Shown: in pieces, positions 464-7,326 of the stretch | Layout: each line of letters starts with the position of its first letter | Numbering within the stretch: the stretch's first letter is position 1 | Virus record (IMG/VR): IMGVR_UViG_2663762948_000005 | Length of the DNA stretch: 9,310 nt | Strand: one strand, 5' to 3' | DNA from: a virus | Taxonomy: Duplodnaviria > Heunggongvirae > Uroviricota > Caudoviricetes | The notes under the pieces: generated by a model | The model's input: only the letters and a program-made list of their open reading frames with translations | What the model was told of the DNA's origin: nothing | Database searches by the model: none | Program-made: the position numbers and the translations under genes

Positions 464-1534
464 TTACCCCCTGAAGCCCGGCGGAATTTCGTTATCCGGT
501 TCAGAAATATGATTCACACAACGCTGGTTGTTCGTGCCGCTTACCGGGAGCAACCAGGGGTTCTCAAAATTCCGGTCCGGTCCAAAAAACGTCGTCGCTC
601 GCTGAACAAATTCCGTTCCCGTTTTCCCGGTAGCCGCCAAGTATCTTGCGTAACGCCTCACGCCATCCAGCATGGCCTCTGGTGGCACCCCCTCGCGTAA
701 TCTGGCCTTCCAGGCACTGAAAGCGGATTTCTTCGGGTTTGCCCCAGCACGCAACGGGTACTCCCGCCAGACCTGTTCGAACACATCCGGATAATCCACT
801 CGTCCCACAGACTGCCCGGTGTTTTCCGGGACTACCCGATCGGCTTCCCGCTGAATGGCGGAATCGGCTTCAGGCTGCTGCAGTTGGTGTGATTGCTCCG
901 CCCTTGCGGTCATCACCTGCTGCACAGCGCCCGAATCGGCTTTCAGCGCATACGCTGAATCGGCTTCCGGTGTCGTGCCTGCTGGCTGACCAAGATTGAC
1001 GGTCTGAACATCCCCTGCCTGGTTCGTGGCGTTTTTTATGCCATGGACCATAGTGTTTTGATCTTCTTGATCTGTATCTTTATCTGTATCTTTATCTGTC
1101 GTGACTCGTCGTGACATGTGCGTGACATTTCGTGACGCGCCGTGACAATCGCCATTTTGTTCCCGCTTTCTTTCCCTCTCTCGCTGCGCCCTCTTGCGCT
1201 CTGCAGGAGATTTTGCGGTTTGCGAAATATTGCCGTTGTCCTCTTTAAGCACCTGGCGTTTTTCCCATCCAGTGATTAAATCACCATCAAGTACCCGCCC
1301 CTGCATCGTCTGCAAAATTGAATCAATTACCTCTTCTGTCACGTCGAGCGCACTTGCCAAATCTTCTGTCGTGACATCAATGTGACCTCGCGTGACATTT
1401 CGTGACGCGCTCACCAGGAGGTGGATATACACTGCCATCACTGTTGCAATTGGCTGTCCTGACACCCTGGCAATTGTTCGCCACTTAGGGTCATTTGGCA
1501 TGTCATGCCATAATCTGAGCCAGGCGTTAGCCAT
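464..1534 (-). CDS. putative phage replication initiation protein (lambda O analogue, YdaU position), about 356 aa
   Basis: Long minus-strand ORF; the track starts it at GTG 1540, but ATG at 1532-1534 with GAGGTGA just upstream is the more likely start. It has an N-terminal domain, a charged low-complexity linker (ERKRAQRERERKREQ...DKDTDKDTDQEDQ) and a conserved-looking C-terminal domain. It sits downstream of ydaS/ydaT-like genes as in K-12 Rac. Family assignment is from memory and uncertain. Confidence 0.65.
   Translation of the reverse strand: MANAWLRLWHDMPNDPKWRTIARVSGQPIATVMAVYIHLLVSASRNVTRGHIDVTTEDLASALDVTEEVIDSILQTMQGRVLDGDLITGWEKRQVLKEDNGNISQTAKSPAERKRAQRERERKREQNGDCHGASRNVTHMSRRVTTDKDTDKDTDQEDQNTMVHGIKNATNQAGDVQTVNLGQPAGTTPEADSAYALKADSGAVQQVMTARAEQSHQLQQPEADSAIQREADRVVPENTGQSVGRVDYPDVFEQVWREYPLRAGANPKKSAFSAWKARLREGVPPEAMLDGVRRYARYLAATGKTGTEFVQRATTFFGPDRNFENPWLLPVSGTNNQRCVNHISEPDNEIPPGFRG
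1061..1146. repeat. iteron-like array A: two 12-bp tandem units (ATCTGTATCTTT) followed by five CGTGAC hexamers spaced 10-11 bp
   Basis: Read directly: CGTGAC at 1100-1105, 1110-1115, 1121-1126, 1131-1136 and 1141-1146, preceded by atctgtatcttt at 1070-1081 and 1082-1093. Lies inside the initiator gene's linker-coding region. Confidence 0.7.
1361..1410. repeat. iteron-like array B: four (C)GTGAC hexamers spaced 10-11 bp; shares an exact 20-bp repeat with array A
   Basis: Hexamers at 1370-1375, 1381-1386, 1391-1396 and 1401-1406. The 20-mer cgtgacatttcgtgacgcgc occurs at 1121-1140 and again at 1391-1410, 270 bp apart. Both arrays begin with atct(t)ctgtcgtgac. Confidence 0.7.
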
Positions 1535-1605
1535 ACTCACCTCTTTTGATACCGAATCTTTTTACTCACAAATTGCCGGAAGTGATCCGGTATGAATATT
1601 GCGAG

Positions 1606-2031
1606 TCAATGCACAGCCACAATATTTCCTGCAGGGCCACCACGATTCATCTGGTTGAAACCAGCGATCGCCACTGCGACAAAATCATCAGCGTCTCTCA
1701 CCAGTCGTTCCCGCGTCTCCACTAGTTCCCGAAAATAGGCTGAGCTATGGCTGCGCATTCGGGCCACCAGCAGAGGTGGCATTGCTTTTTCGATAGCTGG
1801 TAACAACGCCTGAATTTTTTCAACTGCATCAGGGGTGTCTTTCTCTACCCAGCGGAAAATTTTCTGGGTATTGCGAGCCAGGGCTTCCGGATGGCTGTCG
1901 TCATACAGTTCTGGGAACGTCATACCCAGTTCAAAATAAGCCCTGGTTATTTCAGCTGCCGGAACTTTTTCACCGTCCGGATGCGCCCAGGCATTCATCG
2001 CCATGCGGATGTGTTCATGCTTGATTTTCAT
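1606..2031 (-). CDS. ydaT: YdaT-like protein (proposed CII-like regulator, also described as a toxin), 141 aa
   Basis: ATG at 2029-2031 with AGGAG 8 nt upstream on the minus strand. N-terminus MKIKHEHI matches my recollection of Rac YdaT. Overlaps the upstream ydaS-like gene by 17 bp. Confidence 0.6.
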   Translation of the reverse strand: MKIKHEHIRMAMNAWAHPDGEKVPAAEITRAYFELGMTFPELYDDSHPEALARNTQKIFRWVEKDTPDAVEKIQALLPAIEKAMPPLLVARMRSHSSAYFRELVETRERLVRDADDFVAVAIAGFNQMNRGGPAGNIVAVH

Positions 2032-2296
2032 GAATCAAGCTCCTAGAAAGTGGTTGTGTTAACATTTTGGTATCTTCCAGCTCGGGCCAAATATTCATCC
2101 AATCAAAAGGCCTTAGTTGCTGACGTGTAACTTCACCATTACTGGCTCGCTCAATAAGGACACATAACGATGCCCCTAACACTTGACCTTTACTCAATGC
2201 CTTTCTTAGATAACCGATGCTGGTACCACACTCGCATGCAAACATACGCTGTTCATCTGACGAAAGAGAATTGAGAAATATTCTTAATTCTTCCAT
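2015..2296 (-). CDS. ydaS: YdaS-like Cro-type HTH protein, 93 aa
   Basis: ATG at 2294-2296 with AAGGAG 5 nt upstream on the minus strand. Divergent from the repressor gene across a 100-bp operator region. Contains an ...IERA..GEVTRQQLRP... motif typical of the YdaS/Cro-like family, from memory. Confidence 0.6.
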   Translation of the reverse strand: MEELRIFLNSLSSDEQRMFACECGTSIGYLRKALSKGQVLGASLCVLIERASNGEVTRQQLRPFDWMNIWPELEDTKMLTQPLSRSLIHENQA

Positions 2297-2321
2297 AGCT
2301 ACTCCTTAGTAAACACAGCAA

Positions 2322-2404
2322 AGAATACCCATAGGTAAACAAAAGTCAATACCCACAGGTTGTTTACCTTGCAGTAATCGCATCTATTATTTACCTATGG
2401 ACAA
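2322..2404. promoter_or_regulatory. divergent promoter/operator region between ydaS-like and racR-like genes with three TACC-N4-GGTA sites
   Basis: Sites TACCCATAGGTA 2326-2337, TACCCACAGGTT 2350-2361 and TACCTATGGACA 2392-2403. Putative leftward promoter on the minus strand: TTGACT (complement of 2344-2349), 16-bp spacer, TATTCT (complement of 2322-2327). Putative rightward -10 TATTAT at 2385-2390, 6 bp before the racR ATG. Confidence 0.5.
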
Positions 2405-2816
2405 ATATGAATTTAGACGACAGCAACTCATCAAAATTCGTGATGAGAAATGCGATGGTAAAGCGGTTAACGTGGCCAGAAAGATCGGGCGCGAGCCTTC
2501 TTATGTATCAAGAATGTTGTACCCAGAGGGGAAAAAGGGAAAAAAACGGATCGCTGATGATATGGTGGAGATTATCGAAGAGTCCTTTGGGTTACCCCGG
2601 GGATGGATGGATGGTATCGTTTCATCATCAACGAACACAGCCTCCAGTTATGAAACAAGGGTTCTAACGCCACGACAACGTATTTTTTTAGATCTCTTAG
2701 ACGAACTGCCAGAAAGTGAAGCGGATAACTTATTAAAAACTCTTGAAGAGAAAAAACAGTATTACAATATGATCTACGAAGAAATCCGTAAAAAGAAAGC
2801 ACAAAACGCATCATAG
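2397..2816 (+). CDS. racR: RacR-like CI-type prophage repressor, 139 aa
   Basis: ORF with N-terminal HTH-like segment (AVNVARKIGREPSYVSRML). Divergent from the ydaS/ydaT-like genes and flanked by palindromic operator-like sites. No Shine-Dalgarno before the ATG, so it is a candidate leaderless transcript. Identity with K-12 RacR is not verified. Confidence 0.65.
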   Translation: MDKYEFRRQQLIKIRDEKCDGKAVNVARKIGREPSYVSRMLYPEGKKGKKRIADDMVEIIEESFGLPRGWMDGIVSSSTNTASSYETRVLTPRQRIFLDLLDELPESEADNLLKTLEEKKQYYNMIYEEIRKKKAQNAS

Positions 2817-5044: not shown

Positions 5045-5069
5045 ATAGCCTGCGTATGGCGCAGGCTAT
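5045..5069 (+). other. perfect 10-bp stem / 5-nt loop hairpin between racC and recE
   Basis: atagcctgcg (5045-5054), loop tatgg, cgcaggctat (5060-5069). No U-tract follows, so it is not a canonical intrinsic terminator. Confidence 0.5.
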
Positions 5070-5140: not shown

Positions 5141-6524
5141 ATGAGCACAAAACCACTCTTCCTGTTACGGAAAGCGAAAAAATCATCCGGTGAACCTGAC
5201 GTCGTCCTGTGGGCAAGCAACGATTTTGAATCGACCTGTGCCACTCTGGACTACCTGATCGTTAAGTCAGGTAAAAAACTGAGCAGCTATTTTAAAGCTG
5301 TTGCCACGAATTTTCCTGTCGTTAATGACCTGCCCGCTGAAGGTGAGATCGATTTTACCTGGAGTGAACGCTATCAACTCAGCAAAGACTCCATGACATG
5401 GGAACTAAAACCGGGAGCAGCACCAGACAACGCTCACTATCAAGGCAATACCAACGTCAACGGCGAAGACATGACTGAGATTGAGGAGAATATGCTACTC
5501 CCAATTTCTGGCCAGGAACTGCCCATTCGTTGGCTTGCTCAACACGGCAGCGAAAAACCGGTAACGCACGTTTCACGCGACGGACTCCAGGCATTACACA
5601 TTGCTCGGGCTGAAGAACTACCGGCTGTTACTGCCCTGGCTGTTTCCCACAAAACCAGCCTGCTCGACCCGCTGGAAATTCGCGAACTCCACAATCGTAG
5701 AAGACATAGAGCCAGGTATTTATTACGGAATTTCGAATGAGAATTACCACGCGGGTCCCGGTATCAGTAAGTCTCAGCTCGATGACATTGCTGATACTCC
5801 GGCACTATATTTGTGGCGTAAAAATGCCCCCGTGGACACCACAAAGACAAAAACGCTCGATTTAGGAACTGCTTTCCACTGCCGGGTACTTGAACCGGAA
5901 GAATTCAGTAACCGCTTTATCGTAGCACCTGAATTTAACCGCCGTACAAACGCCGGAAAAGAAGAAGAGAAAGCGTTTCTGATGGAATGCGCAAGCACAG
6001 GAAAAACGGTTATCACTGCGGAAGAAGGCCGGAAAATTGAACTCATGTATCAAAGCGTTATGGCTTTGCCGCTGGGGCAATGGCTTGTTGAAAGCGCCGG
6101 ACACGCTGAATCATCAATTTACTGGGAAGATCCTGAAACAGGAATTTTGTGTCGGTGCCGTCCGGACAAAATTATCCCTGAATTTCACTGGATCATGGAC
6201 GTGAAAACTACGGCGGATATTCAACGATTCAAAACCGCTTATTACGACTACCGCTATCACGTTCAGGATGCATTCTACAGTGACGGTTATGAAGCACAGT
6301 TTGGAGTGCAGCCAACTTTCGTTTTTCTGGTTGCCAGCACAACTATTGAATGCGGACGTTATCCGGTTGAAATTTTCATGATGGGCGAAGAAGCAAAACT
6401 GGCAGGTCAACAGGAATATCACCGCAATCTGCGAACCCTGTCTGACTGCCTGAATACCGATGAATGGCCAGCTATTAAGACATTATCACTGCCCCGCTGG
6501 GCTAAGGAATATGCAAATGACTAA
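5141..6524 (+). pseudogene. recE: recE (exonuclease VIII) disrupted by an internal out-of-frame deletion; N-terminal 183 codons and the C-terminal exonuclease domain lie in different frames
   Basis: ORF 5141..5740 begins [30 protein letters not shown]... (RecE N-terminus as I recall it), stays RecE-like to ...[10 protein letters not shown] (ends 5692), then reads a 15-aa unrelated tail and stops. In another frame, from about 5694 ([23 protein letters not shown]...) to the stop at 6522-6524, the sequence is the RecE C-terminal nuclease domain and overlaps the recT start by 8 bp as expected. The total span is about 1.38 kb against about 2.6 kb for K-12 recE (866 aa, from memory). Confidence 0.7.
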
Positions 6525-7326
6525 GCAACCACCAATCGCAAAAGCCGATCTGCAAAAAACTCAGGGAAACCGTGCACCAGCAGCAGTTAAAAATAGCGAC
6601 GTGATTAGTTTTATTAACCAGCCATCAATGAAAGAGCAACTGGCAGCAGCTCTTCCACGCCATATGACGGCTGAACGTATGATCCGTATCGCCACCACAG
6701 AAATTCGTAAAGTTCCGGCGTTAGGAAACTGTGACACTATGAGTTTTGTCAGTGCGATCGTACAGTGTTCACAGCTCGGACTTGAGCCAGGTAGCGCCCT
6801 CGGTCATGCATATTTACTGCCTTTTGGTAATAAAAACGAAAAGAGCGGTAAAAAGAACGTTCAGCTAATCATTGGCTATCGCGGCATGATTGATCTGGCT
6901 CGCCGTTCTGGTCAAATCGCCAGCCTGTCAGCCCGTGTTGTCCGTGAAGGTGACGAGTTTAGCTTCGAATTTGGCCTTGATGAAAAGTTAATACACCGCC
7001 CGGGAGAAAACGAAGATGCCCCGGTTACCCACGTCTATGCTGTCGCAAGACTGAAAGACGGAGGTACTCAGTTTGAAGTTATGACGCGCAAACAGATTGA
7101 GCTGGTGCGCAGCCTGAGTAAAGCTGGTAATAACGGGCCGTGGGTAACTCACTGGGAAGAAATGGCAAAGAAAACGGCTATTCGTCGCCTGTTCAAATAT
7201 CTGCCCGTATCAATTGAGATCCAGCGTGCAGTATCAATGGATGAAAAGGAACCACTGACAATCGATCCTGCAGATTCCTCTGTATTAACCGGGGAATACA
7301 GTGTAATCGATAATTCAGAGGAATAA
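6517..7326 (+). CDS. recT: RecT, single-strand annealing recombinase, 269 aa
   Basis: ATG at 6517 with AAGGA 8 nt upstream; the track start at 6460 is an over-extension. Translation [42 protein letters not shown]... matches my recollection of K-12 RecT. Overlaps the recE 3' end (ATGACTAA). Confidence 0.9.

Follow-up and report, generated by a model that had tools for sequence, protein, structure and literature searches.

Does a recE locus that keeps both ends of the gene, but in two different reading frames, still give rise to an exonuclease, or has it become a pseudogene beside a recT gene that still works? We met this question in a stretch of 9310 nt (called the window here, always at its full length), which is a Rac-type lambdoid cryptic prophage of E. 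coli read in the recET direction. The initial annotation had noticed that a RecE N-terminus and a RecE C-terminal nuclease domain are both recognisable in the window, and it had left two readings side by side: recE is dead while recT is retained, or the nuclease domain is made by an unconventional route. From the comparison of sequences presented below, we conclude that the locus is very probably a strain-specific recE pseudogene in a Rac-type cryptic prophage, created by one deletion of about 1.2 kb.

The genes of the window follow each other in this order:

Minus strand: DUF977, a replisome-organiser-like gene, ydaT and a cro-like gene.
Plus strand: a cI-like gene (2397-2816) and ydaF; minus strand: sieB; plus strand again: kilR, ydaE and racC.
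Plus strand: recE, recT, ralR, rcbA, xisR and intR.

The surroundings of recE are those known from Rac, with racC upstream and, downstream, recT (joined by a stop/start overlap), ralR, rcbA, xisR and intR. Over its whole length the window is 100.0% identical to the Rac prophages of natural strains, isolated for instance from people, poultry or mink, except for the extra recE sequence that these prophages carry. Its closest full-length relative is strain 2017.15.01CC, in which recE is uninterrupted (2592 nt, 863 aa, WP_000105142.1). Outside the deletion only 2 SNPs, at positions 1039 and 4145, distinguish the window from strains with an intact recE.

Structure of the interrupted recE locus

The features on which the following analysis is based are:

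5141..5740, plus strand: truncated N-terminal recE ORF of 199 aa (RecE residues 1-184, 15 out-of-frame codons and TGA).
5601..5603, plus strand: TTG, the sole canonical start (ATG, GTG or TTG) in the nuclease frame before residue 606; it lies within the translated N-terminal ORF.
5672..5694, plus strand: left copy of an imperfect direct repeat, CTGGAAATTCGCGAACTCCACAA, probable substrate of slipped misalignment.
5693..5695, plus strand: deletion junction, at which nt 554 of K-12 recE is followed directly by nt 1772, the AA at 5693-5694 being common to both sides.
5694..6524, plus strand: complete RecE nuclease module (K-12 residues 591-866), 100% identical to K-12 and in the +1 frame relative to the N-terminal ORF.
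5699..5704, plus strand: tandem rare Arg codons AGA_AGA in the N-terminal frame, made by the junction; further AGA at 5708, AGG at 5714 and CGG at 5726.
5738..5740, plus strand: premature TGA of the N-terminal ORF, overlapping the ATG at 5737 (ATGA).
6504..6508, plus strand: Shine-Dalgarno (SD) sequence of recT, AAGGA, 8 nt upstream of the ATG; duplex of -6.0 kcal/mol.
6517..7326, plus strand: intact recT, 269 aa, sharing its first 8 nt with the end of recE (ATGACTAA, 6517-6524).

Aligned by BLAST to the 2601-nt recE of K-12 MG1655, the locus falls into two blocks, both 100% identical: window positions 5141-5694 correspond to nt 1-554 of the gene and positions 5693-6524 to nt 1770-2601. Compared to K-12, 1217 nt (3x405+2) are missing, which corresponds to codons 185-590; compared to recE of strain 2017.15.01CC the loss is 1208 nt (3x402+2). 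The alignment thereby bears out the earlier estimate that the locus is roughly 1.2 kb shorter than the K-12 gene. The deletion itself, which had been placed near 5692/5694, was found as described, but its exact position had to be corrected to 5693-5695, with K-12 codons 185-590 removed. A chance pattern can be rejected because each half reproduces a known gene exactly. A single-base sequencing error was likewise ruled out, as about 1.2 kb of sequence is absent.

As the deleted length is of the form 3n+2, ribosomes starting at recE add 15 junk residues to RecE residues 1-184 before they meet the stop at 5738-5740. The codon list beyond ...RELH (AAT CGT AGA AGA CAT AGA GCC AGG TAT TTA TTA CGG AAT TTC GAA TGA) agrees with the 15 unrelated codons and the stop that had been described there. 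In this 5141-5740 ORF the Pfam family PF06630 (Exonuc_VIII) is matched over residues 2-178 (E=2.6e-99). A second ORF, 5601-6524 (307 aa), overlaps the first one in a different frame; it matches PF12684 (Pfam, E=4.5e-29), and the PD-(D/E)XK nuclease domain of RecE in PDB 3H4R aligned to it over its full length. Both RecE regions are thus retained, but they do not form one continuous reading frame, and these two ORFs with their exact K-12 matches confirm the frame difference from which the question arose. The ATG at 5737 opens an ORF of 42 aa (5737-5865) in the third frame, not in the nuclease frame.

It might be possible that such a locus represents an sbcA-like rearrangement activating recombination, or a natural short isoform of RecE. 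Both ideas had been brought up before, the second one in the form of a RecE that is naturally about 460 aa long in a single frame. Natural in-frame length variants of RecE do exist, and a synthetic in-frame fusion used as a query recovered many of them, the E. coli ones measuring 597-785 aa and the Salmonella ones 591-805 aa. In favour of a rearrangement, Chu, Templin and Clark are said to have reported in 1989 that in-frame laboratory fusions of N- and C-terminal parts within recE restore exonuclease VIII. However, the fusion in the window is out of frame, and none of the natural in-frame variants (591-805 aa) has its junction. RecE is not naturally a protein of about 460 aa in a single frame here, nor is the locus a mosaic short allele, because the nearest relatives in the lineage carry an intact recE of 863 codons. 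An activating rearrangement is further contradicted by the control region: the 5.1 kb upstream of recE, which include racC and the repressor, are unrearranged and the same as in intact-recE strains except for the SNPs at 1039 and 4145. We therefore consider an activating rearrangement or a short isoform exceedingly unlikely.

Origin of the deletion and rarity of the allele

A single deletion of about 1.2 kb took codons 185-590 from a K-12-like recE. It most likely arose when two imperfect direct repeats of about 24 nt, both ending in AA, were brought together by slipped misalignment or by illegitimate recombination. The left copy, CTGGAAATTCGCGAACTCCACAA, is an imperfect in-register copy of CTGGCGAAGTCGCAGATCCCGTAA, which ended the deleted segment. 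When a junction-anchored gapped score was computed for every possible left position in recE, the left breakpoint ranked in the top 0.36% of all recE positions for similarity to the right end. An earlier ungapped or lightly gapped repeat search had found only out-of-register similarity; the repeat came to light through recE alleles that align across the junction of the window. The locus hence combines 100% identity on both sides of the junction, AA microhomology and flanking repeat similarity above background, as expected of a deletion pseudogene. A deletion mediated by an insertion sequence was rejected: no IS remnant is found at the junction, and the alleles of EC09 and ST12468, in which recE is truncated by IS1, have their junctions at nt 1252 and 1803.

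A 131-nt probe across the junction was matched contiguously in none of 5426 complete E. coli genomes, and the junction was found neither in 72,556 plasmids nor in 50,697 phage records, nor in viral, metagenome and species-representative genome collections. An exact look-up of the 199-aa product in a public gene-position index, which covers 153 billion gene positions, gave no record. Within the collections searched, the allele of the window is strain-specific or at least unsampled. As to whether it recurs in the Rac-like prophages of other genomes, a comparison that the initial annotation had suggested, the answer is divided: the exact allele does not recur in the complete genomes, whereas alleles of the same kind are common.

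Absence of the exact junction and product from all these records is also what one would expect if the deletion were an artefact of assembly or sequencing and the strain truly possessed a full-length recE. Yet a loss of 1.2 kb bounded by only 2 nt of identity is atypical of assembly collapse, and the junction looks like one left by a biological deletion between imperfect repeats. Comparable alleles are moreover real and have been sequenced repeatedly (BL21 in 33 complete genomes, 11PC and L009). An artefact thus appears very unlikely to us.

Translation of the nuclease module and of recT

In this pseudogene the nuclease domain is intact as DNA, but is probably not translated to a meaningful extent. 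The nuclease frame is open from 5565, and a codon scan from this position found no ATG or GTG in frame upstream of residue 606, where the crystallised domain begins. The earlier observation that an in-frame ATG and an SD sequence are lacking nearby, and that the TTG at 5601 is the only start, was confirmed: the SD duplex at this TTG is weak, with -2.5 kcal/mol compared with -6.3 kcal/mol for recE and -6.0 kcal/mol for recT. Neither internal promoters nor internal terminators stand out in the locus. One promoter-like site was found versus 2.0 expected, and the terminator-like matches were weak stems, not above chance.

Independent translation of the nuclease would have to start at TTG 5601, giving a 31-aa out-of-frame leader followed by residues 591-866, or at one of the codons ATC 5694, ATA 5706 and ATT 5718/5730, at what was ancestrally the start of the nuclease. 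Among the non-canonical candidates ATT 5730 has the best SD score (-3.8 kcal/mol). Such a start might profit from the nearby stop of the upstream ORF, and the two-gene layout known from stand-alone nucleases would then be re-created. Stand-alone homologues indeed begin at this boundary (in the Salmonella protein P0028, MPDDIQPG lies opposite K-12 I591-VEDIEPG), and in 4/4 alleles with the same right end, which are described below, the upstream ORF stops less than 50 nt from that end. However, ATG and GTG are lacking, the SD scores are far below those of genuine starts, and the TTG at 5601 sits within a translated ORF. ATC, ATA and ATT are very poor initiators in E. coli. Termination-reinitiation at the ATGA (5737-5740) was rejected as well, since the restart at ATG 5737 falls in the third frame. 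Taking these points together, we regard independent translation as highly improbable.

A second route would be a +1 frameshift, which could produce a low-level fusion of the N-terminal region to the nuclease, RecE(1-184)-NR(R)-DIEPGIYY...866. Wherever it occurred from 5565 to 5738, a slip by +1 would bring the ribosome into the nuclease frame and yield a product with the entire crystallised domain. The most plausible site would be AGA_AGA, which is the out-of-frame reading of GTA GAA GAC and the sole feature that could favour a productive shift here. Past the junction the N-terminal frame holds AGA AGA CAT AGA GCC AGG, codons of the documented slip type, and the same post-junction frame is found in the L009/P0121 allele, which occurs in many assemblies (271 member sequences). 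A product of this kind might be functional, as the nuclease domain alone genetically replaces full-length RecE (PMC11611040). Frameshifting at tandem AGA_AGA and AGG_AGG has been documented in E. coli, mainly for over-expressed mRNAs; at low mRNA levels shifting is greatly reduced (PMC5009743). Little mRNA is to be expected from a repressed single-copy prophage gene. On reading the sequence we saw no SD-like stimulator upstream of AGA_AGA, and P-site re-pairing would be poor (AGA to GAA). Nor did we find a frameshift arrangement conserved across lineages. The recE genes of the nearest relatives are uninterrupted, and among the other alleles with the same right end those of BL21 and 11PC are in another frame and stop at once at the junction, so that AGA_AGA is not common to all. 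With neither conservation nor a stimulator seen, the locus does not look like a programmed +1 frameshift gene of the prfB kind, even though slow codons are present. Such a fusion is in our view decidedly unlikely.

The proposal that the nuclease is made by a frameshift or by reinitiation within 5601-5740 thus found no positive support, the ATGA being in the wrong frame and no stimulator of the SD type having been seen upstream of AGA_AGA. All unconventional routes of nuclease expression together are possible but unsupported, and we judge them unlikely. The other proposal, a dead recE with a retained recT, is supported by the out-of-frame deletion, by the relatives with intact recE, by the annotation of comparable alleles as pseudogenes or frameshifted genes and by the lack of a credible start.

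For recT the outlook is different. Its product matches PF03837 (RecT; Pfam, E=9.7e-56), the recT region is 100% identical to that of the relatives, and the intact gene retains its own strong ribosome-binding site. Judging from the position of the premature stop, recT has to be translated here without the benefit of ribosomes arriving from recE, and the untranslated stretch of 777 nt ahead of it could cause some polarity. A composition resembling rho-utilisation sites was not distinctive between the premature stop and recT, where the maximal C-G excess of 0.14 merely reaches the window-wide 95th percentile. In the nuclease region of recE and in recT we saw no further mutations in comparison with the relatives, which is compatible with a recent event and with continued selection alike. 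In a lysogen the whole leftward operon would presumably be repressed, so the loss of recE was probably neutral.

Related recE alleles and stand-alone nucleases

Decayed recE alleles are frequent in other strains. In BL21(DE3) and 32 other complete genomes of the B lineage, recE nt 1-270 is joined to nt 1770-2601, and PGAP annotates this allele as a short ORF (ECD_RS26535) and a pseudogene (ECD_RS07105). The strains ET881 and SW071610 have nt 1-747 joined to nt 1147-2601, annotated as 'frameshifted', and PSS-07 lacks the whole stretch between recE nt 417 and the middle of recT. The deletion in 11PC, annotated as a pseudogene or frameshifted gene, lies in a divergent recE allele (L010-type); what had looked like '165 nt of unrelated sequence' in this strain is actually the divergent L010 allele with its own deletion. 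A protein search with the N-terminal ORF gave dozens of variously truncated or frameshifted N-terminal ORFs, several RecE-N::RecT fusions among them. Judged by these sequences, the middle of recE is evidently prone to deletion and weakly constrained. This fits the literature because the nuclease domain alone suffices genetically and works with RecT (PMC11611040); the N-terminal region of RecE has no known function except for enhancing linear-linear recombination (PMC11611040; PMC7516269).

Four of the out-of-frame deletions end within the same six nucleotides, GTAATC (K-12 nt 1768-1773, codons 590/591):

Window: nt 554/1772, AA microhomology.
BL21: nt 270/1772, AA microhomology.
L009/P0121: nt 589/1773, imperfect repeat TCCC(G)TAATC.
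11PC: L010-type, nt 465/about 1769, TA microhomology.

These four deletions appear to be independent, because their left ends differ, because the recE allele of 11PC is only about 95-97% identical to K-12 and because of the SNP distance of L009. Under a uniform model, the chance that 4/13 mapped internal deletions share a window of 6 nt is P ~4e-5; that 3/4 alleles found without bias towards the tail share the right end has P ~1e-4 by a hand estimate under the same type of model. Scans for further alleles ending at GTAATC added only copies of the BL21 type, and two IMG/VR viral-contig matches to the hot-spot pattern were also BL21-type. None of the in-frame natural RecE variants uses this end. 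The GTAATC site is also the place where stand-alone homologues begin, as in the 276-aa protein P0028 of Salmonella mentioned above; in the proteins of about 272 aa from Hafnia, Proteus, Providencia, Xenorhabdus and Aeromonas, the first residue lies slightly further on than in that of Salmonella, by a few positions.

Pure neutral decay would not lead one to expect that four independent out-of-frame deletions stop at one common right end, precisely where the nuclease module starts, and this counts against it. Three causes could underlie the common end: the site may be a hot spot of mutation, the boundary of homology between prophage modules may have an effect, or the arrangement may be selected for. 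We rejected a hairpin in the DNA, or a block to replication, as the reason for the hot spot, since the folding of K-12 nt 1650-1800 was nothing unusual (z = +1.25 and +0.54 on the two strands). By the junction-anchored score, repeat similarity accounts for the right ends of the window and L009 alleles, but not for those of BL21 or 11PC. It might be possible that the deletions at GTAATC are non-random, owing either to a one-sided hot spot or to selection for a layout that liberates the nuclease domain as a low-level partner of RecT; to this we give a distinctly small chance. As a candidate mechanism for the hot spot one may think of illegitimate joining that has its anchor where a module or a region of homology ends. 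In the domain-liberating case a short upstream ORF would end beside a stand-alone-like nuclease, which would be made via a +1 shift at AGA_AGA or via termination-reinitiation.

Taken singly, the locus of the window matters little: a silent prophage gene has one more route of decay, and annotation pipelines already call equivalent alleles pseudogenes. In practice, strains carrying the allele should be assumed to be RecE-deficient and possibly RecT-proficient, which is relevant to recombineering and to genetics of the recBC sbcA type. Of wider interest is that the middle of recE is strikingly deletion-prone and that independent deletions recur at the boundary where the nuclease is a stand-alone gene elsewhere. 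If this recurrence had a mechanistic or selective cause, it would be informative on how modular phage genes are built and dismantled.

As far as its sequence tells, the window belongs to a kind of recE pseudogene that is already known, the BL21 type, whereas its junction is on no other record searched. Both are internal out-of-frame deletions in a Rac recE, with the right end in GTAATC, 2 nt of AA microhomology, an intact nuclease module and recT, and racC, ralR, rcbA, xisR and intR as neighbours. They differ in the left end (nt 270 in BL21, nt 554 in the window) and in the length lost (1501 nt in BL21, 1217 nt in the window), and the N-terminal ORF of BL21 stops immediately (…ELK-S-TAG) in the other frame. 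The BL21 allele is moreover fixed in an entire laboratory lineage (33 complete genomes), whereas that of the window was found nowhere else.

The P0121/L009 allele (Logan assembly ERR7436882; 271 member sequences) agrees with that of the window in Rac type, right end and frame, and its tail of 15 codons is identical. Its left end lies 35 nt further on (nt 589), and its deletion involves the imperfect repeat TCCC(G)TAATC. The prophage around it is 17 SNPs away from the window, whereas the window is only 2 SNPs away from intact-recE strains; an independent origin of the two alleles is therefore likely.

Laboratory recE deletions and sbcA mutations resemble the window in that they drop much of the N-terminal or middle part of recE and keep the C-terminal domain. 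Reportedly (Chu, Templin and Clark, in 1989), in-frame laboratory deletions within recE or from racC into recE suppress a recE frameshift. Such mutants are in frame and/or have a de-repressed operon, with active exonuclease VIII; the deletion in the window, on the contrary, is out of frame behind an unchanged control region. The RecE truncations used in recombineering and the crystallised domain (564/588/606-866; PDB 3H4R) comprise the same nuclease domain that is encoded at 5694-6524. These constructs were given an engineered ATG and a promoter, whereas in the window the domain lies without a usable start, out of frame behind a truncated ORF. Finally, the stand-alone PF12684 (DUF3799) exonucleases of Enterobacterales and Aeromonas, of about 270-280 aa, are homologous across the whole nuclease module with 55-88% identity. 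Unlike the module in the window, they are complete genes that start with their own Met and carry no PF06630 N-terminal region.

A shared right end of recE deletions

In our analysis we found that four independent out-of-frame recE deletions, namely those of the window, the BL21 lineage, the L009/P0121 allele (from a Logan assembly) and strain 11PC, have their right end in common. Positions in recE are given in K-12 numbering.

Window 5693-5698 (recE nt 1768-1773): shared deletion right end, GTAATC; also at L002:3268-3276, L009:5630-5640 and L005:1960-1970 of the compared loci
L010:4001-6652 (GCA_020556325.1): divergent recE allele

The shared end falls exactly at the codon where stand-alone nuclease homologues begin. 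The left ends differ among the four deletions (nt 270, 554, 589 and an L010-type 465). No hairpin is present at the shared right end, and repeat similarity accounts for just two of the four deletions. The L010 allele is the parental type for the 11PC deletion allele: it is ∼95% identical to K-12 recE from nt 655 onwards, while nt 298-654 are replaced by an unrelated segment, and it is itself split into three ORFs of 161, 492 and 230 aa.

Age of the window deletion and the racC-recE spacer

Over 9310 nt the window differs from strain 2017.15.01CC, its closest relative with an intact recE, by only two SNPs, at 1039 (T/C) and 4145 (T/G). The recE deletion must therefore be recent relative to intact relatives. 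The spacer between racC and recE contains one further feature.

Window 5045-5069: perfect 10-bp inverted repeat, ATAGCCTGCG…CGCAGGCTAT

Only on the minus strand does this repeat receive a terminator-like score. Because it lies within the block that matches the intact-recE relatives, it is unrelated to the recE deletion.

Other rearrangements of recE in public sequences

Many natural RecE variants remain in frame (P0208-P0221, P0290); their lengths range from 597 to 785 aa in E. coli and from 591 to 805 aa in Salmonella. These variants result from loss of part of the middle region, and in several cases the deletion seems to have occurred between short repeats at the peptide or DNA level, such as RDC…RDC or FPNP…ANPDP; the deletion in P0217 reaches into the nuclease domain. 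We also noted several different ORFs in public E. coli assemblies in which the RecE N-terminus is fused in frame to RecT (P0134, P0146, P0166, P0174 and P0178), the deletions running from about recE nt 200-310 into recT. In P0134, P0166 and P0174 the right ends in RecT are at most about 10 codons apart, and this clustering may point to a second site at which deletions preferentially end. P0002, a 463-aa ORF from a Logan assembly, joins the N-terminus of an MFS transporter to RecE from residue about 540 on, and is another rearrangement that keeps the nuclease module behind a foreign upstream ORF.

The immunity/replication region and the recET-int arm

The annotated gene products of the immunity/replication region include the following.

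Window 464-1540: 'replisome organizer', 356/358 aa
Window 2015-2296: cro-like gene, 93 aa
Window 2397-2816: cI-like HTH gene, 139 aa
Within window 464-2816: ydaT

These products do not appear to resemble the racR/ydaS/ydaU set of K-12. In contrast to this region, the recET-int arm of the window is essentially identical to K-12.
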